From contig NW_020845694.1 in NCBI RefSeq assembly GCF_003704095.1, positions 496,001 to 560,000 on the forward strand: a stretch of DNA of 64,000 nucleotides, given 5' to 3'. This stretch comes from Pocillopora damicornis. Taxonomy: Eukaryota. The notes beneath the pieces were generated by a model that ran no database searches, had not been told where the DNA came from, and saw only the letters and a list, made by a program, of their open reading frames with translations. Position numbers and translations under genes: made by a program. Of the stretch, positions 4,639 through 51,800 are shown piece by piece (position 1 is the stretch's first letter; every line of letters begins with the position of its first letter).

Positions 4639-7600
4639 ATGAGAGAGGACGCTATTCTTATATTCGTATCTTCCCTCGTCTCGGTCCATTGTCATTTGTT
4701 CACCGATGCAGGTTCAGACCAGCACTGCGAGGATGACACGTGCATAACAGATGAAAGACCGTGTTTTATTCCTCGGGAAAAAGGTATCTTAACGCGCCTA
4801 GATGGAGTAAAAGTAAGTAAATATGAGGGCAAACAAAAACGATTATTAACGTTTCTGTTATGCCTGTGTATCTGTTATTATTCCTCTATAGAACATTGCA
4901 ATTTCGGCTGAGTATTTTTTGTTATTTTATCGAAATCAGTGACTCGAGGAAAATTATGTAATTTTCGTGACAGTCCTAATCAGAAAGCTTCATCTTCCCC
5001 TGGAAAAGCCATAAAATGAACAATATTGTTATTCTAATGAAGCCTTTCGATTTTCAGTTAATCAAACTTTTTTGAATTGGCTAAACACTGAGAGCTGGTT
5101 GATTGAACGAAATCTCATTTGCACTATGGTTGCAGACCATCAGAATTGTTTATGGTCGGGTTATTTAAAGTAAATTAACGCTTTCCTGTTAGCTGAATTT
5201 CTTCTTGACACTGTTTAGAAATGATCAAAGTTTGAATCAATGATCGGGCCACAGATTTATTCAAGAACGTCTGATATTAATTTATTAAAAAAGGCAGGAT
5301 CTAACTTAAAGCTTACTTTCCAAACTCATCAAATTTCCTATTTTATCTTAAAATAAGGCTTACACTTGCTACTTCGAAGCATTTCGTGTTGTGAAAATAT
5401 TCTAAATCGTTGCAATTTTCAGTTTCATATTCAAAATATAATTTACGCTATCAATTTATTGTTAAAATTCATTTTCCAAAGTATAGTTTAGATTCTCTGT
5501 ATCTGTTTAAAGTCAACTTTTCGAGCTGACTGCAAAAAGCTGGTACCCGGTCTTATCACATAAAGAATACAATAAATACACCAGATGGTTTACTGGTACA
5601 GTTTAAAGATTCTGTCACGTGTTGCAGTAGAGTTAAAATTTATATCAAGTCTTAATCGTTAAAAATATTATGTGACGAAAATAACTGATTAACACCTCCA
5701 GAGAAGCCAGTTCAATTTACCTTAGTTACAGTTTATAATTCAAGCAAACCATGGGTTGAAGCAAATGGCCATTAAAATAGTTGAACGTTTACATCTGTTT
5801 CCTTTCTCGCTTGAACCGATATTGCCATTTACTATATATATATATTTTACTATATATACGATTTTAAGGTTTTGCTCTGCGTGATGTAATATCCCTCTGA
5901 AACATTTACTAACCTTTCACACCCTAACATCATTATGCACATTCTCCATACTGTACTCCATACATTTCCCTAGGAGATGACAAGGAGAACTTGTTTAACA
6001 ATCAAGAGCTTCTTCATTTGGTGATCATTTCGTTGATTCTTGTGACCTTAAAGTTTTATCGAAAGGTGACATTGTGAGGAGAAATTAGATGATGATCATC
6101 CTTAGCGATTAAATAAAGGTGTCCTCAGGGTTTTTTTAAAATAGTTTCGGGTAAAAGCAATTGTATAGTATCAATTCAACTCTGGAATTTTTCAACATGT
6201 TTCGCCATCATCTCGAAGTTTTTATATATGAAAATCAAGAGGAATGTTTGATTTCTACGTGAAGAAGTTCCACTTTGGCGAGCTAACAATCATCATTTTT
6301 CTTTAGGTTGGGCACAAACAGAAAGTTGATCTTGGAGCAGAAGGAAAAAAAGTACTGATAACTCGGGCTTTGAAACCACTCTTGTTTGGTGAGTGTCAGC
6401 CCAACGTACATTTAAGGGAATTTAAGACTTTTGGCCAAATTTTTTCAGCAACTCTTGCCCAAACCACGTACAATTCACCTCTTTTGGCGTATGCGTGGCC
6501 AGAAATTAGGAAAAATTGGTTTTGTTTATCAAGGGAGCCAGTTCTGTCTACAATTTGGTTGCAACTTGGCTACATATCCACTGTATCTGCCAGAAGATGA
6601 AGAAATATACAATATTAAGCGAAATAAATGGTATAAAAATATGGCGGAATTTCATCTGAAAAACAACGAACAGTTTTTAGTTTTCAGTTTTTTTTCATTA
6701 TCTATCTTACCTCCTCAGAGATCCCGAATTTCTTATCTGAAGAAGAATGCAACCACGTTATATCACTGGCGAATGAAAAGGAGTTGGTCAAAAGTGTCGC
6801 TAGAGGAGGACTAACAGAGAGCGACACATGGACACATGACCCAAATCGTAAGTGAGTTAAATTAATTACCACACAGGCTGATTTTAATTCAAAATCGAAA
6901 CTTAGTGGCAAACAGCGAAGGCAAGTTTGGTTTAACTTCTACTCGGTGCTATGCAATAAAAAATCAAATTAAGAAAATTTTTCCGTGAGTAGGACCTTCA
7001 GCTTTAGAAACTTGAACACAAAAGTGAGTAAGATAAACTGGTCAAAAGACTATAGTGTCAAACTTTAAAACACAATAAGTCCAGCTCTAAACAGATGATT
7101 TAGAATTACTTGATAGATTTCTCCCTGAATTGTAAGCTATTAGGTCCCCGTACCGCTGTTAGCCTCTTAGTTGTACCATTACTAATGGTGATAACAGCAA
7201 TCACAACAACATCACAAATAATAATAACATAGAGAGCAACTATAACGAAACGATGACGATTACGTTGACGATTATGATTCTGATAATGATAATGACGATG
7301 ACGATGATAATAATGGAAATTTTAGTGATAATGGAGATATGATAATGATAAAAAAGATAATGATAATGATATGATAGTGATAAGAATAATGTTAATGATA
7401 ATGATAATACAATGATAATGATAATAATAATAAAATGATAATGATAATGACAATGATATTATAATGATGATAATAATGATAATAAGAATAAAAAAATGAT
7501 AATAAAATGATAATGATAATAATAATGATAATAAAATGATAATGATAATGGTAATGATAACGATATGATAGTGATAATAATGACGATAATGATAATGATG

Positions 7601-10600
7601 ATGATAATGATAATGAAATTGATTACAAAATTCCCTTTGAAAAGACCAATTTGAATTGCAGTATTTGGAAAAGCGGAGGGCTCGAGAGGACTGTATGAAA
7701 ATTGGGACTTTGATCAAGATGGAAAAATAACAATTGATGAGGTGAGGACAGTACAGTATTCTATATGTAAAAAGAAACACCCCAGCTTTGTTACCTGTCA
7801 GATCAGTAACGTCGATGAATATAAAATAATTTTTTCCCTTCAGATAAAGAGATTTGCGAAGGTAGAAAGGTACCTTTATCTCACGGATGAGGAAGTGAAA
7901 CGCATGTAAGTTTGCCTCTACTCTAAGGTGAAGTACTACATGGATCGAAAATACATTAAATAGACTGTTTAATAGCTTTGCAATGCTTAAAGCGTTTGTT
8001 CGCGGATCCAGCCGAAAAAGATCACGTAGTCGAGGAAGGATTTTATTCGTCGTCTTACGTCAAGCATGGGAAATAGGAAAGAAATTTGATTCCCCCTGAA
8101 GGAATAAATCCCCCGGCGTCTTTCATAAAACTTTACTTGTGGACAGGATTCACTCAAATCGAGGAGGTTAGATCCCTTCTCCTTTTTCCCACTCGTACTT
8201 AGCTGTATTTCGAGCCACTTTGAGTAATTTTGCGCTGTTTTCTATCAGTTGAACGCTTTCATCAAACTAATGTTCTGTTACTTATTAAAATAATCAAATA
8301 ACAAAATTCGGAGGGAAAAACTTTTCTTCTCAGATTTAACACCTTCGCACGAACCTGGATAGAATTTGTAAAACACATTTATTAAAAAAAGAAGTTTGCT
8401 GTTCACAGATTTCACGACTTGAAGCTACGGGAGTTCGATGATAGTAAGTAAAGACCATAACGTAAGAGATATGATAATCTCAGAAATGTGACATATTTAA
8501 GGGTTCTGTTTAAATGGTTTGAACCGATTGCAGTTTCTTGAATGTGCAACTAGAGGACAAAACATATCGCAGAACTATGAGGGGCGACCAGACAATATAT
8601 ATATTCTAGCTCACTTTTATATAGAAATTAAAACAGTAACTTAATAAATCAGTCACTCAGTCTGTCAATCAGTCAATCAATCAAAAAAAACCAATCAATC
8701 GTTTCCCTTAAATGCAAGCATAAAAGGGTCTGACAATAGTTCTGCAAATACCTCTTAAGTGATGTGCGCACGTTCATCCAGAAAAGATTTTCATACGGAC
8801 TCTGATGATGCAGGTGTCATTACTCGTGAGGAGTTTCAAGACATGAACACGCTCCTTGTTGACAGCTACTTGTACGAAATGGGCCGCAGCCATCCGCGTC
8901 ACCGAGAAAGATTCAGTGAACAAACATGGCTGACAGGGGAACACGAAGACGGAATTCTTCAAGACATCCGCATGAGGTTGGACGATTATAGTTGCATAGA
9001 CCTATAATTAATGTCAACTAGCACAATTATTATGGAGCCATTACCGCATGTTACTCTCTTATTCTTACTCTTTAGCTCCTGTGTAAGTTTTGATGAAATT
9101 TCATCCTGCCCCCGAATTGAACATCCGTGCTGGGGAGGGTCTGGGGCAGGATATACTACGTACAGTGGTCCCGAGGGGATCACCCCGAGTAAAACGGTCA
9201 CAACTTATTTACCGTTTTTTAGAGGAAATGGCCTGCCTTGACTGTTTAGCTTTTAAATTGACTTGTTTCACTTCGCCTTGATATTATCTTTTTTACTTCA
9301 TTTTCAGTCTCCTTACTCATAGATGGCTGCAAGAAGGAGCCCGTTACCCAGATGTAGAAATGACAAGCATACCAAAAAAAATGTTTACCAAAATAAGTAA
9401 AAAATCTCGAAGACCTTGTAAGAGAAAGGGGGGCTTCGGGTAATTGGCTCCTGAAGCAAACAACCGTGGGAAGCAAAAAAGCGTCATGTAGTTGATTAGA
9501 AATCTTTTGAATTTATCTCATAACTTTTCCTTGCAGAGTACAGGCAGTTACAAAGCTGCCCGATGAGATTATCTATGGAAGTGAGTACTTACAGGTAAGG
9601 TTAAAACACTTTTTCTCTTGCCGAAACAGAGAGAGAAAAATCAAGAGGAAAATAAAAATAAGAGAAGCTGCTTATGGGAAAAAAATGAACTCCCGCATAA
9701 GAAACATGACGATCTTCTGACGAATCACAGCGCCATAGAATATCAAATGTTGCTTAAAGTCAATCTGGACTAACTGCACAGGATTCAATAATTAAATAGT
9801 CCTGAAATCAAAATTTTAAAAACGACTCTTTATAAGGTGCTTTTACTCAATTCTCTCACTCCTAGAAGAGACCATAAGATATTTTCTCCTTAATTAATTA
9901 ATTGTCAATTAGGAATATAATGAGACGAAAGACAAATATCAATGAAGGTAAATCAAATGATGATACTAACCAATAATCAAAACCTTAAATATGAGAAATA
10001 GACGAAAAATCAGGAGAAATAAATTTTTGATCTTAGGGGCGAAAGAGTTAAAGCCTAATGTTTCCCCCATTGAAAACAAAGCCTACGCCGAACATATCAT
10101 TAGACCTTCTTCCGAAACGGGCTTGACAAACTTATTACACTCACCAGGTTGTCCGTTATGGAGTTGATGGACATTACCACGCCCACCTCGACAGCGAAAC
10201 GCATGAGCATCCCGAGATACCCTGCTGTCATCAGATTCAAGGAGCCGGAATGGATCGTGAAAGGAGATGCAAGTTATGCAGGTATCTAGCAAAGTAATAG
10301 AAATAGACGTTTAGGGATTTAGTATATACATGCCTATGAGAGAAAGAGAAACTGGCTCTGTTACTTGAGCTTGAAAAATCACTTTCCTAATATCGATATG
10401 GAATTTTGTGGACAATGGAACTAGAGAACATGCATTTACTACACCCAGAATATGTGTTGAACTTTTAGATTCGAGAGCGATATGCGATTAGCTGCTTACT
10501 AATTATACATTAACCATTTTCCAGATATGTTACGATCCTCTATTTCTTAAATGAACCTCCCGAGGGAGGTGAAACGGCTTTCCCGATGGCGGACAACGCA

Positions 10601-11328
10601 ACGTTTATTAAAGAGGTCAGTTAAACTTTTCTTTTCTTTTCTTTTGAAACTAATTCGGATTTGACAAAACAACAACTGCAGTTAAAAATCAACTGGCAAT
10701 TGAAACACTTCGAGCAAAACTTTTGGCTAACAGGCTGACTGGTGCAAATAAGAATTATATTAATCAAGGCACTCGGTAATATCAATGGAATTGTGAGTAA
10801 AATTTGGTATCATTCAATTTTATCAACTTATTGGAACGCTATCAGGGCAAGGAAGAGAAATGAAAGTATCCGGTGCTAGAACTAGGCCCAGGGTATGTCC
10901 GAACAAGCACTGTTAAATTTCCACCTTTCTCTTCCCTAGAATAATCATCCAACCGATAAGCATTTATGTCACACCAAAAATCTGGTGTTAAGATAGATAT
11001 TGATAACCCATTCAATTAATGTTGTTTTCAGAATTTCGCGTCGTTACGTTCCAAGGAAGATTTCTACAATTTAAGTGAGTTTTGCCACAAGTCAAATCTG
11101 GTGGTGACTCCTAAAAAAGGAACTGCTATCTTGTGGTACAACCACGAGATGGACCCAAACAGTGGCTGGCTGGGGAGAATGGACGAGTATTCAATTCACG
11201 GAGGATGCGCAGTCAAAAGGGGGATAAAATGGATAGCGAACAACTGGATCACCGCCCCATATAAGAAGCTTGCTCATGTCCCAAGTCAGTACATACTGGG
11301 TCCGGATATTTACTTCAGTGAAGATTAA
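4639..11328 (+). CDS. P4HTM: Transmembrane prolyl 4-hydroxylase-like protein, paralog 1 (11 exons)
   Basis: GT-AG exons read in frame: 4639-4812, 6307-6388, 6719-6847, 7662-7741, 7844-7905, 8409-8443, 8814-8976, 9537-9594, 10148-10281, 10525-10615, 11032-11328. Motifs KPLLFEIPNFLSEEEC, EF-hand DFDQDGKITIDE, GHYHAHLDS (HxD), [21 protein letters not shown] and KWIANNW match P4HTM. Confidence 0.92.
7195..7616. repeat. Degenerate (AAT/GAT)n trinucleotide microsatellite in intron 3 of paralog 1
   Basis: About 420 bp of ataatg/gataat repeats. It explains the spurious ORF 7322-7780. Confidence 0.9.
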
Positions 11329-12892: not shown

Positions 12893-15800
12893 CTATATAA
12901 CATCAAACTTTCTGAGCCAGGAACTAGGAATGTGAGCTCCATCTTTGTAAGGTGCAGTTATCCATAGATTAGCGATCCATTTCTCTCCCCTTTTTATGCC
13001 ACAACCTCCGTGCAAACTAAAATCATCTCTTGCTCCCATCCAGCCGCTCTCATCGTCTCGTAAGTGATTGTACCACATGATAGCTGTTCCTTTTCGTGGA
13101 CTGATCGCCAGACCTTGGTGGCAGTTATGGCTAAGATTGAAGTAGTCCAAATCACCACGACTTGAAGTCAGATACTAAATAGAATTGAAAACAAAACTCA
13201 TGTTACTCCTTCGTAGTTGATTGCGTAATCGGATCGTACATCTAATGGTAGCCCTGAAAATTATTGTTTTCTATAGGAGTGACTGACTTTGCAACTTCTT
13301 TGATGCTCTTAAAAGATAACAACCTTTAATTGATGTGTTTTTTATTGATTTATGGCCACTAGAATGTTGTCGCGGGGGAATTTGTATTTTTATCGCATTT
13401 CACTCTAAAAGGCTCACGCCCCGCGAGAATCTTACCTCCATGCTAAGGGTGACATTGTCGGCCATAGGGAAAGCAGTTTCTCCTCCTTCCTCGACATCGT
13501 TGAGATAAAACAGGATTGTTACATATCTGATCAAGGAAACAAGAACAAACAAAAAGCGGATTGATGAAAGGTGACAACTGACCTTATAAAGTATCAATTT
13601 TGTTTGAACATGATGTAATTCCATCTGAAATGTCGCTGCTAAAACGTGATTTTATCTAATTATGTAACACAAAGTTCTCGATGATGTCCCGTTCTTAGAA
13701 GTGAAATTAAAGTAGTTGGCTCAGTTAAGTTTGCGCGCAATATTTTTTAAAAAATTGTTATTATCACTAATCAAAGCAAAGCTGACTAAGAAAACGCAAA
13801 AAAGACGATTTGATTATTAGTCATCACCATTTAACTGAACTTTTGCATATGCTCACCTACAGAGCCTACAGCCTTCATCTTTATTAAAGGCTTGCACCAC
13901 ATCTTCATAAAGTTGGCAGCACCGTTTGTCAGTTCTTTTGTCTGTCTCCGAGTCAAAGTGGGCGTGGTAATGACCATGTTTTCCATAACGGACGATCTGT
14001 TGAAAATATGAACCCTTTTCATTGTAGTCGAAAACGTTTTTTTCTGCCCTCACACTACGAAGAAGGAAGTTGAAAATCAAAAAGAGAAGTTTAAAACAGA
14101 GTTTTGTTTCATGAAAGATGTTCACTTCACAAACTTCACACTCTAATTATTTTTTCATATTTAACATACGAAATATTCTTTTGACCCGCAAATAGCAGAT
14201 GCTAATCAAGGCAGGTCAATTTCTTATTTAACTAAATAAAATTTAACTTAATTAAATTATATTGGATATAATACAGAAATTAATAAATAATACATAAAAA
14301 GACATGTAAAAAGCTACACAATGAAAAGGGAAATGAAACTCATTCGTTGTAAAAGAGAAAACGTCCTTAAGTTTCTACTTGTAGTAAAATTTTGTAGAAC
14401 TGGATGAATTTGTTTCAGTTTGCAGTGTTTGAATTTTTTCCTCTAGTCTCCAAGAACTTCTGAAATCCCAATGAGGAATCGATCCTGGATTCGGCGCTCT
14501 GATGCTCTGCCATTGAGCTACAGAAAACACTAAAATGAACCAGACCTCTACCAGCTCCTTATGTACAAGCCTCCAGAGTACTGCCAAAATCGGCAACGTT
14601 GAGCGTTATACGAGAAAACAGACGAGAAAGATGATGAATTTGGAGCTTTGTCATGAAATAAAACGAACCCAGAAATCTGAGTTTTTTCTTCTCTTTTTTT
14701 TTTTTTACCATTACCGTGAGAGACCGAGATACTTTCCAAATGTCAAAAGATATCCTTTGACTAGAATTATAAGAAAAAAATTAAGGCCTACGATATCCTC
14801 TGGTTAAAAAAATTGTTTATTTGACAGTTTGTTACCTGAATTCTCTCACTGCCGTAGATGATTTCTCGGGAGAGTCTGGTGAGTTCTATAACTCTGAAGA
14901 ACAGATGGTAGATAATATATGATACATGACATGGTAGATGATACATGACAGCAATCAATTTTAACTAAATTTCTTCAGCCGTATGTTCGAATAGCTAGGA
15001 AACTATGATTGGTACAACTCGTTTTTAAGGCATACTGTAGAAAGCAGTAGGAGATCTTTGACTGCACGTGATTCTTCTATCAGACCTGTAAAATTGGTAG
15101 TTTATAAAAAATTTACAAATTAGCATGATCCAAAGCCAATGTGGAAGACGCCTGGTTTGGACTATCTATTAGGAGCACTGATCTGCCACGCTCAAGTGAA
15201 AACGTTACCTTTCTATCACTTTGTTTAAAACTGGATCGCCCAAAGATCTCTGATTGACCCAAGTCTGATCACTGTAACGTGGCCTGTGAAGTGGGTGAGA
15301 CATAGACATTGCTGACATCAAATCCGTTAACCCCATGGAATTCATTGTTTTGAATTCATCAATTGTAGCAAATCCTGAGAGAAAAGGTGATACTTTTACT
15401 CAGTGATCGTGCGAATAATCAAGGAGCAACAAAAGCAAAGAAGATCTCCATGGTATCAACGAGCGCTTTTCATTCAACTTATTTATTCTTGTTTTCTCGT
15501 CACCATATTCCCACCAATTTCATATAAACACACACACAACCCATAATTCCTTCAATCGCTCTGGTGAAGGGCTAACGCTCAAAACTTCAGCCTTGAAACT
15601 CTTTACGGTGGCCAATTTACGTTTTCAACTCAATTGCTAACATTAAAATTACCTAAAAGAAAAGAAGATTAGATAAGTGTTTACCGTGGGTCGATAAGAG
15701 TCGCTGTGTATCACTTGCGCCTAAAAATTACTCCATGTTGGTCTCAAGCTCGCTTGACTGTTTCCAATCCATTTCTTCTTTTTATTAACGAATATTCTTT

Positions 15801-18515
15801 GACGCACTTAAATATACTTCATCCCTATTTGAATTTTATCTTTATTTCAATGTTAATTCCTCAAAACATAACGCACTAAATGGAGAAATGACTGAAATCA
15901 TTTTAATCATAAAGATAATCAGTCAAGGTGCCTAGTATAAGAAAGTTATTTACCATCGTCTAATTCCGTGATATTCACATTATGAAGCCTGTAAACAGAA
16001 CAAACTCGGCTTAGGGACCGGTCGTTATTTATCACGGAAANNNNNNNNNNNNNNNNNNNNNNNNNNNNNNNNNNNNNNNNNNNNNNNNNNNNNNNNNNNN
16101 NNNNNNNNNNNNNNNNNNNNNNNNNNNNNNNNNNNNNNNNAAAGGAAAATAAAAACTATCCTTGGATTAAAGCGTTTACTCACAGTAAATGAAGGAAAAA
16201 GCAAGCAAGCAAACAAGCATGCCAGCAAATCGATAAGACTAAAAATATGCAGTTTGAGGGGAACTTATAGCTACTCAGGTTACATAAAAAGTCTAATTTT
16301 GTACCCACCTCCTCGATAGTCAGTTTTCCATTTTTGTCCCCATCCAAATATTGAAAATAATCAACATGCAGTGGCCCATCTGCAACAAAACATTTTAAAA
16401 AATTTTATGTCATGGATCAAAATCTTAACAATGAATAATCATGAATCATGGGTACATTGTATTTTACCGCAAAACATTGAACGAAGCTGCCTAATAATGA
16501 GCGGAACTTCCGTAAGTTACGACCAGCTTTCCATCAATGATAAAAGGAAGGGTTGACAACCAAAATAAAGTGCGCCCGATATGGGACTTGAACCCATGAC
16601 CCTCAGATTAAAAGTCTGATGCTCTACCGACTGAGCTAACCGGGCTCACGGAATAGTATTTGTTGAAATGAAAATACCCAATGCTGGCATCAGAGTATGA
16701 GACTTGGAATTGACTTTATTTTTGATTTAGAAGTGCACTGTGCACAGTGGACGCATCAGTTATCAATAAGGTCAAGTTACATTGCAGTTGCACGGTGAGT
16801 TTAGCTAAAAATACAGTCAAATGCAACTCCTCTGTTCCCTTTGAAATCACTGGCTCGTATCTTACTTCTGATGTCAGGGATTTCAAATTCACTCCAGGAC
16901 TGTAGTCCTCCCTTAGCTGTACTGGTAACAAAGCGTTCTCTTTCCGCAAGATTAACCATGTGGCCACACTCTTCCTCAGACAGAAAATTGGGAATTTCTG
17001 GAAATGAAGAGATGATGCCAGAAGAGATGATGTCACCGACCACAGTTCCTAATCATTAGCAACAATTATTAACGACAAAGCCATGCAAAAGCCTACAAAC
17101 ACTTCTAAAGTTTCATCAGCGAATTACTGTAAAGCCGTTGTAACGTTTGTTCTTTGACCATAACCGTGCAGCGTGAAAGGTCGTGAAAGTCTTACAGATA
17201 CCATTACCCCTATCACAATCATTACCATTAAGAATAAAGGTAAAATTTTCCCGCCGAAAGGAAAGAAAATCGCCAACAGGCATATAAAACTCCTACAAGT
17301 ATCCATACCATACGGTAAGATGTAATTTTTTTGGAGCAGTCTTACCAAACAAAAGAGGCCTCATAGCTTTTGTAATCCGCTTTCTCACAATATCACCAAG
17401 ATCAACATCTTCAACGTGACCAACCTATGACGAAATTTTACGTTTAAAATGTGACTTTATTTATATGGGCGCTATAGCTGAAAAATAAATGTGGCTAGAC
17501 ACAGCAACTGTAACAAAGACAGCCAGGAAAGTTTCGAGCGAGTTTTAAATTAAGGTGATATCCATGTACTTTATTCGCTACGATCGCTAAAACTTCCAGG
17601 GTTTATCTTTGATGACCAATATTGGAACTAAGAAACGAAAAACATTATACAATGAAGTTTTAACCAAGGAAAGAAATCGCACCGATCGCAGCGATGAATC
17701 CGATTCAATTACGACAATTCTCGTAACGAAGTACCGCGTGGACAGCGCCATTCCAAGATGGCGGCAAGCGCTTCTCGGAAGAGCAATCATTGATTTGGAC
17801 AGCCCTACTTGTTTGGACTGCCTTTTTTCAGTCAAGTTGGTGTTACTAAGAATAATTCGCGGAAGCACTGCTTGATCAATTTTGCTTTGGTGATTTTCAA
17901 AAAGTGCCGGTAACCGCCCTCTATAATGTTAGTCTTATCGTAGTTCGCCTAAGTAACTTAGCGACAGATTGTCTTCACGTACGGGATATTTTGCCAGTGT
18001 GTTTATGGGGATATTCGAACGAACGCATTCACAAACAGAATGATAATTCTAATTCGCACAAGTTGTTTTTCTTTTTCTTTATTCCCGAACGAATTATATA
18101 CCTGTGCATGTTAATTTGGCTGACCTAATAGGAAAAATAACATACGTACCATTTCGATCGGTTGTCAACTTGCATTGAGGAGCATGGGCAACCTCAAAGC
18201 CCAAATACAATGATCGTTAGCTTATGGCAGATTGTGACACCTTCTGTAATGGAGTGAATTAATGAACTTAAGAAGATTTAATAAAACCACAAGTCTTACT
18301 TTAACGCCATTTATTCTTGTCAAACCAGCCTTCCTTCCGATAACGCATGGTTCATCTCCGCTTGAATCAAACTTTTTGTAATCGCATCTTTGCCCCTCCC
18401 GTACAAACCTACAAACGTTATATGTTCGATTACTGGGCTTCTTTTCGCAGTAAGCTGACAAAGCTAAAAGTGAGCAAAGGAGACAAAACTTCCATCGAAG
18501 ACTAAACAAGGTCAT
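12893..18515 (-). CDS. P4HTM: Transmembrane prolyl 4-hydroxylase-like protein, paralog 2 (11 exons; exon 5 in the assembly gap)
   Basis: Exons in transcript order: 18515-18300, 17424-17346, 16997-16866, 16379-16309, [exon 5 presumed in the N gap 16041-16140, preceded by a polypyrimidine tract], 15988-15954, 15374-15209, 14893-14836, 13996-13857, 13526-13436, 13174-12893. Motifs [45 protein letters not shown]. Confidence 0.9.
16573..16645 (-). tRNA. trnK-UUU: tRNA-Lys(UUU) in intron 3 of P4HTM paralog 2
   Basis: Reverse complement GCCCGGTTAGCTCAGTCGGTAGAGCATCAGACTTTTAATCTGAGGGTCATGGGTTCAAGTCCCATATCGGGCG: 73 nt, full cloverleaf, TTT anticodon, A and B boxes, TTTT terminator just downstream. 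Identical to 35807-35879. Confidence 0.95.
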
Positions 18516-19735: not shown

Positions 19736-19777
19736 CGCCCGATATGGGACTTGAACCCATGACCCTCAGATTAAAAG
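19736..19777 (-). pseudogene. 3' half of tRNA-Lys(UUU), truncated at the anticodon arm
   Basis: 42-nt exact match (cgcccgatatgggacttgaacccatgaccctcagattaaaag) to the intact tRNA-Lys copies. The D-arm and acceptor 5' half are absent. Confidence 0.85.
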
Positions 19778-26000: not shown

Positions 26001-26491
26001 AAAAAAAGCAAAGCAAACGAGTGAGAAGAATTGAGTCACCAACTGTTAGTTTGATTCGATACCAAATTCTCAGAGGGAACGTCGAGAGAAAAATATAACC
26101 ATCAGTGATGAGAATTTATATTTTAAAAGTAAGATATGAAAGGTTCAAGTCCGCCGACTAATTTCACGTATTAAAAAATTTGTTAATTGAGGAATGGCTC
26201 ATCCAAAGAAGGCCACAAGAAAGATTAAACTTAGATCGTAACAACTTCCGATTTACAGTTTAAGTCACTTACCTTCACTCCGTCAAGTCGTGTTAATCCG
26301 GTTCGCCCGACAAATGTGGGACCTTCGTTAACACCATCATCAATCTCTCGTCGTTTACAAGCATGGTCGTTAGCAGAACAGCTCTCATGGCGAGAATTCG
26401 ATGGATCAGAATACTTATCTTGGCAAAGTGCAAATTTAAAGCTAACTAGAGATAAAATATATACAACTTTTACAGAATAGAATAAGGCCAT
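20007..26491 (-). CDS. P4HTM: Transmembrane prolyl 4-hydroxylase-like protein, paralog 3 (11 exons)
   Basis: Exons: 26491-26273, 25743-25665, 24567-24436, 23881-23805, 23420-23359, 23222-23188, 22479-22314, 21564-21507, 21205-21069, 20594-20504, 20285-20007. All GT-AG and in frame. Motifs [41 protein letters not shown]. Confidence 0.92.
21988..22219. repeat. Long inverted repeat (about 100-bp arms) carrying a hammerhead-like core; Penelope-type
   Basis: aagaaaatatgcgac...aagtgcataacaa pairs with ttgttatacacct...gtcgcatattttctt. The right arm contains CTGAAGA-t-gacag-aagaa-ctgtc-GAAAC-at-GTT (22162-22194). Confidence 0.85.
22987..23136 (-). mobile_element. Penelope-derived repeat with a minimal type I hammerhead motif
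   Basis: Reverse strand reads gctCTGATGAaaggctaacgctcGAAACGTCagc (23101-23134), followed by the acggtggccaattt...caactcagttgataa...tttctttagaaac body also present at 239-388, 15556-15655 and 42076-42160. Confidence 0.7.
25025..25628 (-). mobile_element. Deu/Nin-domain-like SINE, interrupted by the 25075-25372 SINE
   Basis: Reverse strand ggataaggacgaaaagctgtaggccccgtctc...acgttaaagaaccca...aagagtaggg resembles the Deu domain. (ATT)n tail at about 25025-25041. Confidence 0.6.
25075..25372 (+). mobile_element. tRNA-derived SINE (MetaSINE-like central domain) nested in an older SINE
   Basis: A box tggcctcgtggt, B box ggttcgagc, central cacccaggtgtacaaatgggtacc, tail ctttactttt. TSD cttacccattt (25060-25070) / cttatccattt (25374-25384). 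Confidence 0.8.
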
Positions 26492-30964: not shown

Positions 30965-31693
30965 TCAATGCAGCTCACTCACTGGAGCCGCAACCCGCAG
31001 TGCCTTTTTTAACTCGATTAGAGGAAAAACCTTTTTGTAACATCGGCCAAACTCTTGCTTTTCACAATCCTTTGGCTTTGGTCCAGTGTAGTATTCACAG
31101 ACAAGCTTCAGCAAGTTTCTTTGGGCCATATTCTGAATCTTTTCAGTGTGCTTTCCATTTACGGTCACCCACGGAACGTACTGGTGCTGTGGCTCTAACG
31201 CATCCGTCATCGCGGCCATCTTGTGTTCCAGTTCGTTCCCCAAAGGACCACTCACGCAAGCTTCGATTGAATCATAGTCAATTTTCAGAGACTTGGCACA
31301 GCTCTGGGCCACTGTTGTAGGTTCTTCAGAACCCTCGATATTCTTCTCAAAGCAATAAACAAAAGATAGCGATGCCGAAATGTTCTTGAGGAGGGAAATG
31401 GCGCAAGTCTCAATGAGATTCCCCTCGCACTCTTTTGGCCCGTGTTGGCACTGAAAAACCCACTTGTCTCCAATCTTTCTTTCCTCGGCATTTCCATACG
31501 GGACAAGTGTCAGGTTTATTATATCGCTGACCTTGAGGTACGTTGGATAAAGCTGCTGTCTGATGAATAATTGGCAGTCAGGACACAAACTCTCGTAATA
31601 CAAGGCCAATTCTACTTTTGGTGCATCGTCAGGAAAGCTTGACGCAATGCCAGGCATAAGGCAAAGGAGACTCCACGCCAAAAGTCCGAACAT
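30965..31693 (-). CDS. IFI30: Gamma-interferon-inducible lysosomal thiol reductase (GILT), copy 2, intronless
   Basis: Signal peptide, active site YYESLCPDC, signature CQHGPKECEGNLIETC, YVPWVTVNG. 242-aa uninterrupted ORF. Confidence 0.95.
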   Translation of the reverse strand: MFGLLAWSLLCLMPGIASSFPDDAPKVELALYYESLCPDCQLFIRQQLYPTYLKVSDIINLTLVPYGNAEERKIGDKWVFQCQHGPKECEGNLIETCAISLLKNISASLSFVYCFEKNIEGSEEPTTVAQSCAKSLKIDYDSIEACVSGPLGNELEHKMAAMTDALEPQHQYVPWVTVNGKHTEKIQNMAQRNLLKLVCEYYTGPKPKDCEKQEFGRCYKKVFPLIELKKALRVAAPVSELH

Positions 31694-40959: not shown

Positions 40960-43900
40960 ATGATAATTTATACCAGTTATATTTGGGTTTTAACTGCCCT
41001 GTTTGGATTTGTAAGCTGTTATGTTGGAAGTCAAATTAATCTCTCTTGTGAAAACGGCGTGTGTTCCAGGCAAGCGGATCAAGGACCATGTGTTGTTAGC
41101 GACGACCACGAACGCCTTTTTAGATGGGATCCAGTCAAGGTAAATAGAAACGACTTAACTGAATGGCAGTGTAAGAAATGTAGGTTTTATGTTTTAACAG
41201 TGAACGCGTATGGTATTCAGGGACTTTCGTCTTCAAAATTATCCATTTAGCGTTTTGAATATATTAGTGTCTGTTTAAAGTTCCCCGAACATGCTCAGCT
41301 ACACGTTAAAAGATATACACTTGTCACAATCCCGCATTACAGACATAATTAAGGTGCTTTAGCACCGTGTCAAAGTCATTTGATATGTTTGACCGTGTAC
41401 TCTGATCGTCGGAATGGAATTATCACGGAGAAGGGCTGTTGTTGGTATGAGTAGCGACTGACGTTTCGACAACCTTAGCGGAAGTCAACTCTTTACTTGA
41501 CTCTGATAATTTCTTTCCCTGAGGTTGTCGAAACATCGGTCACCACCACTGAAAACAGTCCTCCCCAATGAGGAATAGTGTAACCCAAACGATCAGACTG
41601 CGTGATCAAATGTTACCACTGTCTTCAAACTAGGTACTGTGAATCAAAGTCAAACATCTCCAAAATGAGGTGTATACGTAGCCGTAGCCTGTATGTTTGG
41701 AGGTGGAGGGTAAGTCGGTTCTGAGGCCTTGAACAACAGCGTCGCGAGGGGAATGGGAAGAAAAAAAGGCCCGCGCGAGGCCTCGGTCCAGATTGAAAAC
41801 GCACTCTACAAAACGGTCAACTACATGGGTTGATTTGTGCTCTTCATTTCGTTGACAGAGAGGTCACGTGAGGGAATTAGAGTTAGAGCCTGGGAAAAAA
41901 TACAAGATGATAACTTTAGCCTCCAAACCTCCGGTGTTTGGTAAGACTTCATAGAGTAAAAGTTGAATATATTTTCTTATCATAAAATCAACTGTTCCTT
42001 TGTTCTTGTCTTTCCCATTAATAGCGTAGCTCCATTTTCTGCATTTAAAACAAACGCAACCCACAGTTCATCTATTTTCTCGGACGCAGGGCTAGCAATC
42101 CAAACTTCAGCTATAGAAACTCTTCACGGTGGCCAATTTAAAATCAGTGGATAAAGCCAAACAAGAATATTACTCATGATATAATGGATCACATATTTCA
42201 TAATTGGCGATCTGTGATTTCTCGAAAGACTAATGACGCGAACTTCACTATTTCAAAACATAATGAAGCCTGTTTTTTTACTCACTACTTTTTAGTTATC
42301 TTTTTCATAAACAATCAGTGCACCCCAATCTCTTCTTATGAAGTCGCTTCATGCTACACAAAAAAGGGAGTACGCTCAGACAGCTGTGTGTTCGAGTCGG
42401 TCTTATATACTTACATTAAACCAGCAATAATTTGTCTCGCTTTCTTGGTTACCTTTTGCCTTTTTTTCCAAGATGCCCGGCCAGAATGGTTTTTAGTCTC
42501 TCACATGATACTGGACAGAAACTTGAAAGACAGCTTACGATGTAGCAGGCTCATCATGCTGAGGCTTACTCCGACGGGTTTCGATAGCTCAGTTGAGGCG
42601 ACCAAGACTATAATTTGCCTGAACCGGGATACCACTCCATCGAGGGTCACCCTCTTGCATTTCGTTAAGCTTTCCTAAAAGTTCGCTTGTACCCATCTGT
42701 AAACCCCGGGGTGGAGAGGCACTTTGCGAATGAAATGTTTCCAAAGATCACAGGACAATAACTCGGCAAGGCTCGAACCCTTTTATCAAAACTCCAGCAC
42801 ACTAGCCACCAGGCCAAAGCTATGACCGTATCTCCCACTTCTTTCATGAGCCACCTTGATTTGTACGCGCGTGCACGTGGTTTATTTTCGGTGTCAGTTG
42901 GTACCAATCAGAGACAATATAGTCTTGATCGCGACGAGATTCATGATTTTGTAAACATTTTTAGTTAAATTTGAGGTAAACTTGTCTTCTTTTACAGAGC
43001 TCCCTGATTTTCTAAGCGAGGAGGAAAGTGAGCATATCATCGATCTAGCTGAAATGTTTGGCCTTGAAAATAGCCTCATGCATACTGATGAATTTCAAGA
43101 ACAACATAAGAAAGAAGTGAAAGGTAACGCTAACAATTTCACTGATAGTTTGTTCCAATAAGGAATAAGGAAATCTTATTCGTATTCTGTTTATTCATAC
43201 GACACTTTCGACATCGCCGATCATTTGCAAATGAATGACGCACGTTATAGCTCACGGCTGGTTATCTGCATGTTGACCGAACTATGTTATTATTTCGTTG
43301 TGAAATTTCATCTAGATCTAAATTTATCATAATTTTAACAAAATACTTTCTGCCATAAGGAGAAAAGTTGAAAGATTTTTGGGCGAACTCGTTTTACTGC
43401 AGTGGGCGAACTCGTAAAAGTGCTAAAGGGCGAAGTTGCAATGGGGCGAAAACTCCTCATACCCTCATGAGAATGTGTATAAGGTTCGATTCCCCGTGAG
43501 GACTCAGATTTTTTCCTTTGTACGACGAAAGATGATTTTTATGCGTTTCGATACAAAATTAAAAATTTACCATTTTCCTGCTTTCATACCAATAAATTTT
43601 ACTTATTTACTAGGGCACGCAAGTGGAGCTGCTGGTATATATCTAAGCTGGGACGAAAATCAGGATAAGGAGATAACTAAAGACGAGGTTGTGGAACTTT
43701 TTCGATGCCATTCTGTACTAAAAAGATATATAAATTATATTATGTGCCTGGCTGTTTATTTAATAAATTCCGGCTAACAATTCCATGACGGGAGAATTCT
43801 TTAGCAATCAAACGGGTATAAGAAATTTAGTGATTCAAAACGTAATGCTTGAAATTTTTTTTATAATTAAATGACTTCTTTTAGAGCAATATATTCTGAT

Positions 43901-46900
43901 AGGTTCTTACTGCAACATCTGGAAGAAAGCAAAACCACAGCGTCTTCAGTGATATCCATTATTTTTCATATTTTAAGAGTAACGTTTGCCACAAAATCAT
44001 TCACCAGATAGCAGGTGAAATGAACGGAAATTTTTTGCCAAAGTGTATTTTCATCACCTCTTAATTTCAGGTAATTCACTTTTCACGGAGATATAAGTTT
44101 CTTTACATGACCCCTGAGGAAGTCGACGTCATGTAAGTACAACTCACTCCGCTTAACACAATCACGTAGATAGCTGCCTCGGATATCTCGAGCCGCGAAA
44201 GTAACCATCTTCTTCTGGTCAATCATGGTCGTGCCACGCCGAACCCGAAATTTTAATGTCCGTCGGCCAAAACAGCAGGCATCCGAAGAATGAAGTGATT
44301 ACTCATCGAACTTTCGCGGTAAAATAAAATTCGTCGATTTTCGTCAAAAGCCGCCAAAATCAAAGAGGTCGCCTAATTTTACTCTTATTACTCAATTTTA
44401 CCACAATACTGCATTTTTCTTCAGAGTACCCACGCAATCCCTTCCTTTCTTTAAAAGAGAATCTTTATTCAGACCTTGGTCCGTGAAACAAAGGTTCAAA
44501 AGAAAGAATAAATCAGTTAGCACTGCATTATGAATTAAATAAGGGCCGAAATCGGCCGCACTGCCAGCCAATGATCTACTGGTTTTGATTGTGGAATCAA
44601 AAGTTGTACCAAATTTCACTTTGCCTATTCCTCAGGATAAAGAAATTGAAGATCAGAGAGTTTGATGATGGTATGCTCGTGGTTTGTTTAAAACTTTTAT
44701 TTCTTTGCATATGTAGTTTTGTCTACCTTTCAATTCTCACTCTTTTTTTTTTAATCTCCTTGATTATTCCTTGGATATTTTGGGAGGGTTATTTATTTGT
44801 TTGTTTTTATTTCTTGGCACTTGTTTTTAAATCTTGTTTGTGAACCGAATTCTTGCTATTGTTTACTTGTAGGCAAAGTCACGATACAAGAATTTCGTAA
44901 ACTACCAACGGCTGCTATGGACGACTATATGAACAAGCTGAAAGAATTATCACCAGTTCACCGTGAACGAAACAGCCACCAAACCTGGCTACATCAGGGA
45001 AAGTTTGCCAGTAAAATTATGCAAAGGTTACGAGAAAGGTGAAGTTAAGATATCACTTTCATGCATGTCTTTTCGTTGTTGTTGTTGTTACTGGGAAAAC
45101 TGAGATAGGACATTTCTCGGCTTGTCCACAATGGGACCCTGTCAGTTTTGTTAATTATCAATTTCTGATCAAATTAACATTAAGACTTATTCTTACACAG
45201 AATAAAGAAACTAACAAGGCTATCTGATCGTGTCATCCGTGGAAGTGAACCTTTACAAGTAAGATCTACGGTGTTTTGACCCTTTACACCCAAATATCAA
45301 TATGCATATTCTCCATGCTGTTCTCTAAACATTTTCCTAAGGTGCTGAAACGAAGGATTTGTTTAACAACCAGGAGCTTCTTTAGTAGCTGATCACTTCT
45401 CGTGACCTTAGTGTTTGATTCAGGGGTAACATTGAAGGAGAAATAATATGTTAATCTCTCTTAGGTGCTAAGAGTTAATGCTGATTCAGTTCCCACTCAC
45501 TTGCCTTCTTACAGACAAGAGAGTATCCAGTAATTAATGATTCTTAATCTCCCATACAGACCTCACTCTGAGGGTAATCCCTTCTGGGCTATTTCATTCC
45601 AGTTTTTATGTTTGTAGTTCCCAAAAAGATATAAGAATAACCGAGCGACCTTTAAGGTGAAGTTCTCGCTCGTTCGACATCCCATTGGGCAATTGTTCAT
45701 TTTCACCTGAAACACTAATTCAAGTAGCATGCATGATACAAGTAAAGTACGAGTACAATCTTCTGGATCCTCGATGCTTTCTCGCAGTTATTAGAGATTT
45801 CATCCATGGCACATTTTTAGCCCCAACTACGGAGACATCTTCCTTTTTTCTATAAAGTAAATACTTACCGTACAACGTTTGGTCTCAACCTTCAGGTGGT
45901 GAAGTACGATGAAAATGGCCATTACAATGTTCATCACGATGCTCAGCCAGTGGCTACTCACTCGCACCTCAAGTGCTGTCACCTGAACGTCACCAAGATA
46001 CCAGCTTGCAGACTTTGTAGGTTAGTTAAGTATTTTCTCGAGAAAAGAGCACATACTGCCCATGTAAGGGCCATTGCGGCACTAGAGAGGGTTTGAGTGG
46101 AAGAGTAGCGCTCAAAATCGGTTTTGATATCCCACTAAGAACAGAATTGGGTAAAACTGATTGTGATAAACTGATAACTTACAAAAATTCTACTGAATGA
46201 ATATCAGAAACTTGCTTTCCAAATGGAAGTTAAACAAATGGTCTGCCCCCTCCTCTCGCCTAATTCCGTGGAGTATTATTAATAGAACTGAAAGTGGTGA
46301 ATTTTGGCGGGATTTTATTCATTGTGCGGTGGAAATTTTTTTTTCCTCTGCGGAAATGTAGCTTTGCGGATCAAAGACGATCCACAACATCTGCAAAAAT
46401 TTAGACCCGCAAAATTTTCATGCCACGCGGTATTCCGCCCTTGTGTGACAGACAATCTCAAGTCATGCTTCTTTTCGTTTATAGATATATTACTATATTG
46501 TATTACCTAAATGACGTCGAGGAGGGTGGAGAAACAGCTTTTCCAGTTGCTGATAATAAAACCTTTGATCAACAGGTCAGTGATAAAGTGACTCCAAAAT
46601 CACAGTGACTACTTACGCCCTGCAAGTAGTAAAATAGTAAACAAAAGCCAGGCGGCAACTCAGGCGCCGGTAAAGATACAAACGACAAAATGGCGTTGAT
46701 TTTTACTTTTGGATGTGACTGATTGAGAAGCAGAACTCGCGCAATCTCCAAGTTTTTCCTCACGTGAACAAGAGTCGCTTAAACTTTGTGGGGATTTTGT
46801 TCTTGTTTCTGAATTTGTTAAGTTTGTGGGATTTGATATCTGGGCTAAAAAGGCTAAAACTGCTGAAATATTTAGCTGTTCAGCACAGAAACTTAAGCTA

Positions 46901-47558
46901 ATTTAAGCCTGTCATTGATGAAAATTTTACGAGCATGATGTCTGATGGGGAGAGCAGGGATGACTTTGTTATCAAAGGCACTCGCCTACTATCCGCTGAT
47001 GCCTGGTTACGATTTTAGAACGTGGCATCAAATGTGCATTGAGTTTTTATTTTTAGTTCTCGTCCTTGCACAGATATTTTCTCCTATTTTTAGGTTTTCC
47101 TCTATCTATTGAATTGGCAAAGAACCACTCTTTAGTTGCGCTGCTGCTAAACTCCATATGATTTTCGCCTGAAAAACGGTGAAGTAGACAAACGGAGCAC
47201 GGCAGCAAGAGTTTCAACGAAGATACCTAACGACATTCTTTCTTACATTTTCCCTCAGTTGTACATCAAAACCATGAGTGATGATTTATTCAACTTGATG
47301 GAATTCTGCCATGCCGCCAGACTAGTGGTCCCCCCAAAGCGAGGCAAGGCTATCATGTGGTATAATCACTTCGTGGATGAAGAGACTGGCTGGCTGGGAG
47401 AGAGGGACGATTACACCCTTCACGGGGGGTGTGGAGTGCAGAAGGGAATCAAATGGATTGCAAATAACTGGATTACTGCCCCTGACGCACCACTTGCGCA
47501 TATAAGAAGTAACTTTGAAATCAAGGAAGAAGAAGAAGAAGAACCTTTTAACTTATAA
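40960..47558 (+). CDS. P4HTM: Transmembrane prolyl 4-hydroxylase-like protein, paralog 4 (11 exons)
   Basis: Exons: 40960-41139, 41859-41940, 42998-43123, 43614-43687, 44071-44132, 44636-44670, 44873-45038, 45201-45258, 45896-46020, 46485-46575, 47259-47558. Motifs [47 protein letters not shown]. Confidence 0.92.
41400..41597. mobile_element. Palindromic Penelope-type repeat with a degenerate hammerhead core
   Basis: gactgacgtttcgacaacct...gactctgataat...aggttgtcgaaacatcggtc inverted arms, with outer ctgatcg/cgatcag pairing. Confidence 0.6.
42620..42820 (-). mobile_element. Degenerate MetaSINE-like SINE
   Basis: gtacccatctgtaaaccccggggtggagaggcact...ctcgaaccc...ctagccaccaggcca is the reverse complement of the 25075 element. 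Confidence 0.6.
45277..45478. mobile_element. TTAA-flanked MITE-like repeat (related copies at about 5909-6110, 49610, 49857 and 58275-58480)
   Basis: ccctttacacccaaatatcaatatgcatattctccat... ending aagagttaa; closely similar to 5910-6110. Confidence 0.6.
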
Positions 47559-48825: not shown

Positions 48826-51800
48826 ATGAACAAAACAAGTTCACAATTTGAAGGCTTTATGAGGAATGGAAAAAACTTGTTCATAATTTTTTCGATTGTT
48901 GCTATCAATTTTAGGCTAGCTGCAAGCAGTAACGCGCGCAAGCGGCTCGATAAGTCTTGCGAAAACGGCATCTGTTTCAGGGAGCAAGACAAAGGACCGT
49001 GTATTCCCAGTGATGACGAACCAAGGCTGTTCAGATGGGATCCTATCAAGGTATGTTGCTGCTAAAGAAATGAAGGTATAATCAAACAAAGAAAATGCTA
49101 CTTCAGGGAGAGTACAAAGAATTGGACCATCATTACAATCTACAGAAGCTCTAAGTTGAAGCAGCGATCTATAGTAGCAGAAATCCATTTGTGGTCGAAA
49201 TAATGTAAACATTGTAATAATGCACGTACGTGTCCAGCACAGAGCTATGTGCCAAGCCAGATAATTACGTGCACTGCGCTACAACTTCTCAAGTTAAGAA
49301 CGATGCAATGGCGCCATTTTTAAATTCAACCAAAATTAGCACGTGGTACCAGCAAAAATAGCAACAGAACCTTGAACAGGAAACCTGCTACTTTAAAAAA
49401 CAGAATTCAAAACAGCTTTCTAGCTGAAAAGAAACGGTGAAAATCGTCTTCCTTATGCAAAAATAAGATAAATGAGAACATTGCAGTGGGGGGAGAGACG
49501 TCTTTCCGAGAATGCTGAATTCGCTCTCGAGAAAAAAGAGAGGAGTGAATTTTGAAATATAACCTGTCTTAACCGTTTAGTGTCTTTCTTTGAACTTCCC
49601 CTTGCATTTTCACCCTTGAATAAAATGCAAAGGTCATGAAAATAAAGGAAAGGATCATTAAGTTAAGAAGCTCCTGATTGTCAAACAAATTCTCCTTGTC
49701 AGTATCATAACAAATCAAAGAGACAGCATGGAGAACATGAATACTAATAAGGTGTTATTACCATAGAAAGGTCACGTGAGAGAGCTTGAACTTGAAGAGA
49801 GAAAAACATACAAGATGATTACACTCGCATCTAAGCCTCCTCTATTTGGTGAGTTTAACCTTTCGTTGCCTATGATCTGACTGTTAATTCTCTCCTCTGG
49901 TTGCTGCACATTTCTTTTTAAATCAGTTACGAGAATTTGGTGTTAGATCAAGTTAACAACTACTACCACAGCGATAAGTGTCTCTCCTCATACTTACCAG
50001 CTGATTGCTATTATTTTCCCTCGCAAAAGAGGGTTGCTACCTCCCACTTAATCATCATTCGTGTAAAGCTAGTTAAATCCATCTTTATTTATTACGATGT
50101 ACCTTTCAATCGGTAAAAGTACATGACATAGTGTTCCCACCTCCCCTTGGAAAGCGATCGGGCCATTTGATTGATCAGTACATACCAAGGCGTCGATTAA
50201 AGACAATTCAGGCCACTTTCATCCCCAAATGATAAACATTCTCTTGCTACATGACAAAGTAAAGTTATTTTTCTTTATTTGATTATAGAAATACCGGATT
50301 TTCTTAGCGAAAGCGAAGCCAATCACATCATAAGTTTAGCTGAAAAGGTCGGCCTCCGAGGAAGCGACCTTCACCTCGATGAGGAACTCGAGAAAAACAA
50401 AGAATTTGTAAGAGGTATGCTAGTTAACAAGGAAGTTTGGTATCAAGGATGGTCCTTAGAAGCTTCAGTTTACAAATTCATATCAAAGATAAGAGCTATA
50501 TCGCGGTGATTTAAATATCTTTTGTTTTTGCGTCTAAAATTGGGGGTGTGGGTGCATTGATCTAAAAATAGAAGAGAAGGCTCGAAAATAGGGGTTATTG
50601 AGGAAGAGAACCACCAAAGAGGAACCGAAATATAACGGAACGAAAAAATGATCGATGATTAAGACTGAGACGGACCGCAAAAGTAAACCCTGCAAAAACT
50701 GAGGCTAAATATTCCCTTTACTTTGTTTACTGAGTGGAGTGCCCCATTAGATGCTTCTGCGCTTTTCCTAATTAATCCCTCTAATTTTCAATTCATTTTT
50801 TTTTCAATCTATCTCTTTATCAATTGACATATCTATTTCGCAATTATAACTATTTAAAAATAGCATAAACTTCGCTCTTAATCCACAAGCCTTGACGTAG
50901 CTCGTTCAAATTAGTTCTGTATCTTGGCCCAGCAAGTTCCAGGAATCTCCAAACTCTGAAGAGCTGTTATTCAAGTGAAGAGAGATAAATTGTTCATTTA
51001 ACCTTCATTTTTTCTCTAGGAAATGCAAGTGGTTCTCTGGGAATGTTCTTAAACTGGGACAAAAATGAAGACGGGCTCATTACAAGGGATGAGGTAAAGA
51101 TGATAATTAAGTTATTAATTTTAGCATCAATTAAAAATCAAATTTGCATTGGTCATGCCTTACTTGGCTCTGTGATTGGCTAGGAGAACTCAGGCCACAC
51201 TCTCAATCTATTTGTTTTACTTCTCATTGGCTCCATGTGATATCTTCCTCAGTCTTAATTTGTCGTTGTGAATATTTTGGTTTCATTGTTACGATACTTC
51301 CTCGAAAAATAGTCTATCGTCCTCTTTTGGTATTTCACAACAATGTGTTACTTTTATCTTTCCTTTAGATCATTGATTTTGCTGCAGACTTCAAATACCT
51401 TTATCTGAGTCCAACAGAAGTAGATGACATGTAAGGATGATGATCACTTCTTTATATATCACTTGATGTTTTCTTCTTCGTGATCTTAACTCGAAGGCAT
51501 AGATCCTGCATTAGCTCCAACTTTTCTCTTCATTTTAGGATAAGCAAGCTAAATATTTGGGAGTTTGATGATGGTAAGTAGCACAATGAACCATTTTCCC
51601 GCAAGAAAATTTAATAGTTTCTCTCCTTTGTTTTAAGCAGTTTCTGCTTGAGGACCAAACTGATAGTCCTGTTTTGCAATGGCTTCGCATCACTTCTCTA
51701 CGTGTTCAGCATATGAAACCCGGGCAACCATCTCAGCCAATCAGATGCAAAGCTAACACCCTTCAAATACTTCACTTTCGGAAGCTTGCTTGTTTTTTCT

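Follow-up and report, generated by a model that had tools for sequence, protein, structure and literature searches.

Prolyl 4-hydroxylases (P4Hs) of the secretory pathway are found in several forms. Plant P4Hs, which are located in the Golgi, are reportedly type II Golgi or endoplasmic reticulum (ER) membrane enzymes with a short cytosolic tail, and the alpha subunit of collagen P4H is said to have no KDEL signal of its own. Vertebrate P4H-TM possesses a cytosolic N-terminal tail, a transmembrane helix and a C-terminal ER-retention signal. The human protein is functionally enigmatic, being capable in vitro of HIF-alpha hydroxylation and having variants linked to HIDEA syndrome (PMC7948501). 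A 64,000 nucleotide stretch of the genome of the coral Pocillopora damicornis (positions 496,001 to 560,000 of NW_020845694.1; hereafter, the window) contains five P4HTM-type genes, termed G1 to G5. These genes are a real feature and constitute a previously undescribed variant within a known enzyme family: the literature searched, which excluded most subscription papers and in which the invertebrate alignment of Fig. S3 in PMC7948501 may bear on novelty, held no account of a cnidarian P4HTM expansion or of the signal-peptide form being ancestral. Judged from sequence, G1 to G5, which retain the full set of active-site residues and lack a KDEL tail, are likely soluble lumenal P4Hs that may travel with proline-rich cargo through the secretory pathway; taken as a whole, we regard this account as an even call.

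Spliced alignment of the window yields five genes of 11 exons each, with GT-AG introns. G1 (4639..11328, plus strand; exons 4639-4812, 6307-6388, 6719-6847, 7662-7741, 7844-7905, 8409-8443, 8814-8976, 9537-9594, 10148-10281, 10525-10615 and 11032-11328) encodes 434 residues, 431 of which are identical to those of the contig-derived protein P0002. G2 (12893..18515, minus strand) encodes 443 residues according to the proteins P0039 and P0322; as its exon 5 lies inside an N gap (16041-16140), the exon 4/5 junction of the spliced model is wrong and the contig-derived P0039 was used instead. G3 (20007..26491, minus strand; exons 26491-26273, 25743-25665, 24567-24436, 23881-23805, 23420-23359, 23222-23188, 22479-22314, 21564-21507, 21205-21069, 20594-20504 and 20285-20007) is identical over 444/444 residues to XP_027046522.1. 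G4 (40960..47558, plus strand; exons 40960-41139, 41859-41940, 42998-43123, 43614-43687, 44071-44132, 44636-44670, 44873-45038, 45201-45258, 45896-46020, 46485-46575 and 47259-47558) encodes 432 residues, matching the contig-derived P0335 at 431, and G5 (48826..55024, plus strand; exons 48826-49050, 49767-49848, 50289-50414, 51020-51093, 51369-51430, 51539-51573, 52314-52479, 52800-52857, 53549-53673, 54043-54133 and 54749-55024) is identical to XP_027046523.1 at all 439. The original prediction had placed five paralogs within 4639..49050; all five genes do fall there, except that this range stops at exon 1 of G5, which continues to 55024. Intron phases (0,1,1,0,2,1,2,0,2,0) are common to G1, G3, G4 and G5, and the five proteins are 40-60% identical in pairwise comparisons. 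The two-domain fusions present in GenBank, G3 with G2 (P0021) and G4 with G5 (P0331), were rejected, since a start and a stop are present in every gene and separate RefSeq or contig-derived proteins exist.

All five genes, and 64 of the 64 rows forming the core of the cnidarian clade described below, retain the equivalents of human His328, Asp330, Arg358, His441, Lys451 and Trp457, the roles of the Fe, 2-oxoglutarate and substrate residues having been described for the human enzyme (PMC7948501). From these conserved residues we infer that G1 to G5 would be prolyl 4-hydroxylases by activity. Single last exons match PF13640 only weakly, the best solved relative of the G1 last exon being human P4H-TM (6TP5), and the family scores above cut-off in all five full proteins. 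An AlphaFold model of G3 (pLDDT 89) likewise has human P4H-TM 6TP5 as its best match in the PDB (E 2.8e-36, 38% identity, TM-score 0.75 by target); the ESM Atlas gave the family name alone. Cysteines stand at the loop-disulfide positions of the human protein in G1 to G5, and in each alignment row of the five the EF domain is inserted in the catalytic domain. Within it, the calcium ligands of EF-hand 1 are retained, whereas in EF-hand 2 position 1 is R, T, T, R and W and position 3 is F, L, L, F and F in G1 to G5 respectively, against an Asp at position 1 in 48 of 55 rows outside the clade; ligands 1 and 3 are lost across the whole 64-row core. The loop following HxD, which in the human structure borders the substrate groove and is nearly invariant in vertebrates (PMC7948501), differs between the paralogs.

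The hydrophobic N-termini were scored with heuristics based on Kyte-Doolittle and Hessa values, the summed insertion energies being rough. Signal peptides are predicted at 4639..4692 in G1 (residues 1-18), 18447..18515 in G2 (1-23), 26423..26491 in G3 (1-23), 40960..41019 in G4 (1-20) and 48826..48927 in G5 (1-34, or 12-34 from a second Met). Within the 35 N-terminal residues of the five proteins, the highest hydropathy over 11 residues is 2.01-2.69, above the maximum of 1.18-1.60 found over the 357-369 downstream 35-residue windows per protein. The hydrophobic core begins at residues 6, 10, 6, 8 and 17 in G1 to G5, compared with residues 48-56 in five named fish and coelacanth rows, and in four of the five genes it is short, with 10-18 uncharged residues. 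The vertebrate arrangement of cytosolic tail and transmembrane helix was accordingly not found in G1 to G5 by the hydropathy heuristic and inspection for upstream exons. Insertion energies of 6.2, 3.0, 5.0, 0.9 and 4.8 for G1 to G5 compare with 2.1 and 2.5 for the signal peptides of two GILT genes in the window and with -2.2 to 0.1 for 10/10 anchored homologs, comprising vertebrate proteins (five fish and coelacanth rows, -1.5 to -0.7) and an anchored paralog of corals and anemones.

A small-residue (-3,-1) site occurs in every one of G1 to G5 at the motif in which the original prediction had the hydrophobic stretch end in a small residue (VSVHC, LSAYC, KFALC, GFVSC and RLAAS). This test alone does not discriminate, because the coral anchored paralog has such sites too; however, a small residue, often Cys, is retained at the cleavage-like site across orthologs despite drifting of the core, for which identity among orthologs of G1, G2, G4 and G5 is mostly 0.2-0.5, whereas that of the catalytic part is 0.58-0.97 and, for comparison, that of the vertebrate anchor helix 0.83-0.96. 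Very probably, then, the predicted signal peptide is cleaved in G1 to G5, with least certainty for G4. Some paralogs might instead keep it as an uncleaved signal anchor and so be type II membrane enzymes of the Golgi or ER whose cytosolic tail is very short. G4 is the most plausible instance, being the most anchor-like of the five with 30 uncharged N-terminal residues and an insertion energy close to the anchor range, and 3 of 55 core-clade rows have an energy <=0.5; residues 2-27 of G3 are also modelled as a single helix by AlphaFold, which is in itself non-discriminating. The short cores of the other four genes, followed by cleavage-like sites that recur in orthologs, make such an anchor very unlikely, as does the N-terminal layout of the clade, in which the hydrophobic segment is early in 61 of 71 rows, late in 0/71 and absent from seven (three rows lack a starting Met), while in the coral anchored paralog the basic tail is 35 residues long and the helix is longer and conserved. 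Weighing against cleavage, besides the energy of G4, are the fairly conserved core of G3 among its orthologs (0.67-0.73) and that of G2, which is 0.93 identical in Stylophora.

Upstream coding exons could replace these starts. For the annotated isoform they were rejected in G1, G2, G4 and G5, where a stop lies in frame two codons ahead of the ATG (in G2 also after an acceptor-like site at -9); the spliced contig-derived proteins P0002, P0039, P0334/P0335/P0339 and P0043 start at the same Met, and the RefSeq starts agree. In G3, 40 codons are open 5' of the ATG. RNA contigs from four runs were placed on 24300-27300, the 5' part of G3 and the sole 5' end covered, where they bridge the exon 1-2 joint in two runs and the exon 2-3 joint in three. 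One spliced contig (from run X1, a single run of the four, depth ~6) extends without a joint to 26609, giving a 5' untranslated region of 118 bases (26492..26609, minus strand) with no in-frame ATG, the sole ATG in it meeting a stop after seven codons. On this one contig, of a kind that cannot prove a true start, upstream coding exons were rejected for G3 as well, although rare alternative first exons are still possible for any of the genes. Elsewhere in the same region, contigs in two of the four runs, covering 24688-25694 in G3 intron 2, link 24799 with 25459 across a plus-strand GT..AG, in antisense to G3, and a high-depth repeat lies at about 25075-25370.

None of the five proteins ends in xx[ED]L, so a vertebrate-type C-terminal ER-retention signal was not found among them. 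Their last residues are YFSED (11311..11328 with the stop codon, plus strand) in G1, KFDVI (12893..12910, minus) in G2, LNFYI (20007..20024, minus) in G3, EPFNL (47541..47558, plus; a tail that is variable in close relatives) in G4 and DIDDR (55007..55024, plus) in G5. Together with the five N-terminal motifs, all ten pentapeptides quoted in the original prediction were thus located at the expected places and strands, and its proposal of soluble proteins with signal peptides and no KDEL tail is upheld by the hydropathy, the conserved (-3,-1) ends, the stops before four ATGs and the RNA contig of G3. Beyond the window, xx[ED]L ends occur in 4 of the 67 clade rows with a complete end, compared with 30 of 52 rows outside it (Fisher p 3e-10, which is overstated because the rows are related). 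An H-x-x-S C-terminal arm is present in 33/64 core rows and 1/55 outside; it is ordered in the G3 model (residues 431-440, pLDDT 91) and is therefore likely to be structural.

The difference in tail frequency suggests a changed location, and forward transport rather than ER retention is, on the sequences, somewhat favoured. The structure paper on the human enzyme raised the idea that loss of its retention signal might let P4H-TM advance past the ER (PMC7948501). In G1 to G5, the signal peptide would be lost by cleavage on entry to the secretory pathway and, without KDEL retrieval, the enzymes would move from the ER through the Golgi into vesicles alongside proline-rich cargo, different paralogs perhaps accompanying different cargoes. 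Hydroxylation would then occur inside the lumen, not outside the cell, the proline-rich secreted proteins of cnidarians being candidate substrates only.

Several observations tell against onward transport, and a missing KDEL is no proof of export, as partners can hold in the ER enzymes without a KDEL of their own; ERp44-type thiol retention is a known route of this kind. The hydroxylation of proline requires an unfolded chain, Fe(II), 2-oxoglutarate and ascorbate, which suits the ER. With the signal peptide cleaved, G1 to G5 could hence be ordinary ER-lumenal P4Hs held through an unpaired N-terminal Cys, PDI, or a KDEL-bearing or anchored paralog, the principal rival account and a possible, if doubtful, one. 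Its precedent is collagen P4H, an ER enzyme with the KDEL retention signal on its PDI subunit (PMC9676403). An N-terminal Pro-Cys motif that could mediate thiol retention is found in 32 of 44 scored core rows but in 3/22 outside, mature G4 and G5 each have an odd number of cysteines (nine), four members of the clade do end in xxEL, and the genome keeps both a paralog with a signal peptide and HEEL and an anchored paralog. A changed location is nevertheless suggested by the scarcity of retrieval tails within the clade. Moreover, Pfam reported only 2OG-FeII_Oxy_3 and EF-hand families in the five proteins and no P4Ha_N, so that the dimerisation and peptide-binding domains of collagen P4H alpha were not found, and the soluble human P4H-TM construct was purified as a monomer and dimer (PMC7948501).

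A bolder version of the original prediction has the enzymes exported, hydroxylating skeletal, mesogleal, mucus or capsule proteins outside the cell or in the maturing cnidocyst. Signal peptides without a retrieval tail would permit this, the expansion spans anthozoans and medusozoans, as do cnidocytes, and proline hydroxylation has been assumed for the Hydra capsule protein CPP-1 (PMC6910907). Furthermore, a P4HTM-type protein predicted to be secretory ('S'), CR_93, was detected in the matrix of the axial skeleton of the octocoral Corallium rubrum (PMC7853314). This match was of low abundance, however, with 2 + 1 unique peptides from the two fractions examined and histones appearing in the same list (PMC7853314), and it resembles another branch: the motifs of CR_93 match only that of genome model V2 (3/163 rows; as short motifs were compared, the placement is a lead), and not the clade of the window genes. 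The main text of the Stylophora skeleton-proteome paper does not mention a prolyl hydroxylase (PMC7115838). In the Nematostella matrisome, neither the main text nor 10 supplements gave a prolyl or P4H match (PMC12549020), its tables using gene identifiers, and the rows listed from a nematocyst proteome, which are myxozoan, gave no match to the family motifs (PMC8773148); neither is evidence of absence. Published detection of the clade outside cells was not found in the literature searched. It also seems doubtful that 2-oxoglutarate, Fe(II) and ascorbate would be supplied extracellularly, and export with hydroxylation there or in the cnidocyst is decidedly unlikely. Fairly unlikely, too, is the wider proposal that cnidarians turned an ER enzyme into exported post-Golgi prolyl hydroxylases acting in cnidocyst capsules or in the skeletal and mesogleal matrix, with paralog-specific proline-rich substrates and one form having three ShK-like domains in its EF region. 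Observations in favour of the lumenal passage with cargo preferred here include the detection of CR_93 and a report of one P4H-TM transcript upregulated at the tips of Acropora branches (PMC4320547).

A last-exon search of the P. damicornis genome gave 21 matches, corresponding to 20 P4HTM loci, as two matches are exons of one gene. Nine of the 20 are on the contig of the window, four of them upstream of it, and the contig stretches C2329:439-472k and 560-570k contained no further P4HTM locus. For phylogenetic analysis, proteins P0001-P0259 of 370-760 residues with the C-terminal motif were taken, fused and duplicate models being excluded, and 18 genome models were added, with P0039 for G2, to give 163 rows; pruning at 80% identity, with a long match to a reference required, left 126 rows (FastTree). 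Gaps and distant templates left genome models V2, V4, V5, V6, X1, Z and U3 incomplete or in part incorrect, and their N-termini were not relied upon. All five window genes fall in one 71-row clade (FastTree support 99), recovered in a 47-row IQ-TREE subset with support of 99/96 (100/99 for the core). Species could be assigned to 41 of the 71 rows and all 41 are cnidarian, from stony corals, anemones, the octocorals Xenia and Dendronephthya, the hydrozoans Hydra and Hydractinia, and the jellyfish Rhopilema. The clade holds 13 of the 20 genome loci, as 12 genome models and a ShK-bearing locus represented by its Montipora ortholog. G4 and G5 group with one Hydra protein (99/97), and G1 to G3 with other Hydra and Rhopilema proteins (98/99), so the duplications predate the anthozoan-medusozoan split; several clade members share one scaffold length within each of Nematostella, Hydra, Rhopilema and Oculina, which suggests that the cluster is old.

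Other paralogs in the genome include one with a type II anchor and basic tail, one combining a signal peptide with HEEL, one with KLEL at the end of its last exon and one probable pseudogene. The anchored paralog (L009, G000:C3902:88471-83823, minus strand) has a basic tail of 35 residues, ends in KKIK and has orthologs in corals and Actinia; its anchor was probably gained independently of that of vertebrates. The probable pseudogene (L019/L013, G000:C1173:197483-207611) belongs to the clade and carries in-frame stops in both of its final exons, the last and the one before it. A short way upstream of the window, the ShK-bearing locus (L001, G000:C2329:486514-492865, minus strand) is a P4HTM paralog in which three ShK-like domains are inserted around the EF region. 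Montipora (P0128), Desmophyllum (P0022) and Stylophora (P0024) have orthologs of it, and its HxD exons apparently lie within N gaps of the assembly. A divergent P4HTM-like group that includes P0165 (from the clam Ruditapes), P0161, P0177 and P0178, most with an early hydrophobic segment and none with a KDEL-like end, possibly represents a parallel expansion.

The window genes nest among P4HTM homologs of a sponge, invertebrate bilaterians and vertebrates, on a weakly resolved backbone in a tree whose rows included neither collagen nor plant P4Hs as an outgroup. Among the rows named as invertebrates other than cnidarians (sponge, echinoderms, hemichordates and molluscs), 12 of 12 have an early hydrophobic segment and 10 an xx[ED]L end. 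The signal peptide, which the original prediction had set against the vertebrate form, is therefore the usual condition outside vertebrates: the contrast is inverted, as it is the vertebrate anchor that looks derived. Anchored forms require two changes on the 47-row tree, and constraining the vertebrate and coral anchored forms together was rejected (p-AU 0.021, for a group named after the trees were seen). Hence a signal peptide seems to be the ancestral state and the anchor a derived one that probably arose twice, with the root of P4HTM history set by one sponge row and one other row. The ancestral animal enzyme would have had a signal peptide and a KDEL-like tail; a cnidarian copy may have lost the tail and later the EF-hand 2 ligands, been duplicated in tandem before anthozoans and medusozoans separated, and given rise to paralogs that diverged in the loop after HxD. 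Tail loss is not unique to cnidarians, since homologs from Haliotis and Ptychodera also lack it. As far as sequence can tell, what distinguishes the window genes is that the retrieval tail is lost, that EF-hand 2 has decayed and that the genes have expanded in number.

Soluble paralogs with diverged groove loops offer a panel with which to seek lumenal substrates of P4H-TM, and the clade provides candidate modifiers of proline-rich secreted proteins in cnidarians. If the ancestral form was soluble and lumenal, the enzyme is unlikely to have served originally to modify a cytosolic target like HIF. Two coral expression studies (PMC9622859, PMC10202950) treat 'P4HTM' as sensing hypoxia; given about 20 loci that show at least three topologies, this interpretation requires checking at the level of individual paralogs.

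Other genes are interspersed with the cluster. Between G3 and G4, on the minus strand, are two GILT (thiol reductase) genes of a single open reading frame (ORF) each, the starts of which resemble signal peptides (28309-29013 and 30965-31732), although their linkage to cysteine-rich hydroxylases may be chance. Three single-ORF genes for rhodopsin-family G protein-coupled receptors are interleaved with the cluster (3257-4333, plus; 34614-35750, plus; 36659-37756, minus), and a DUF1731 exon at 55734-56207 on the minus strand belongs to a gene converging on G5. Trinucleotide-type low-complexity repeats at 7100-7650, in G1 intron 3, generate spurious Ile/His/Tyr-rich ORFs.

Among known systems, human P4H-TM shares with G1 to G5 the predicted fold with its EF insert, the catalytic residues, the loop-disulfide cysteines and, presumably, a lumenal catalytic domain. 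The coral proteins differ in having no cytosolic tail or long transmembrane helix, no ER-retention tail, an EF-hand 2 without ligands 1 and 3, a different C-terminal arm and extra N-terminal cysteines, and in belonging to a set of about 20 loci in one genome. Invertebrate homologs with a signal peptide and KDEL-like tail (Oscarella HQEL, Antedon KDEL/NDEL, Holothuria HDEL, Saccostrea KEEL and the coral HEEL paralog), annotated by homology as 'transmembrane prolyl 4-hydroxylase-like', have the same early hydrophobic segment and domain layout but, unlike in the window clade, the retrieval tail is retained in most of them, as are both EF-hand loops. The 448-residue CR_93 of Corallium rubrum is a cnidarian P4HTM-type protein with EF-hand domains that was found in a skeleton matrix, but has the motifs of the V2 branch; its sequence is cut short at the C-terminus, and it is not among the rows of the tree. 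Chlamydomonas and plant P4Hs agree in catalytic core and in the residues that contact the substrate (3GZE, E 2.6e-16), yet are smaller and have no EF domain. Finally, a working analogy is provided by collagen P4H alpha, secretory-pathway P4Hs that expanded for tissue-specific cargo to 26 genes in Drosophila, 18 of which are high in the accessory gland (PMC12340787); these differ in having dimerisation and peptide-binding domains, pairing with PDI and lacking an EF insert, and match G3 only weakly (7ZSC, E 3.1e-10).

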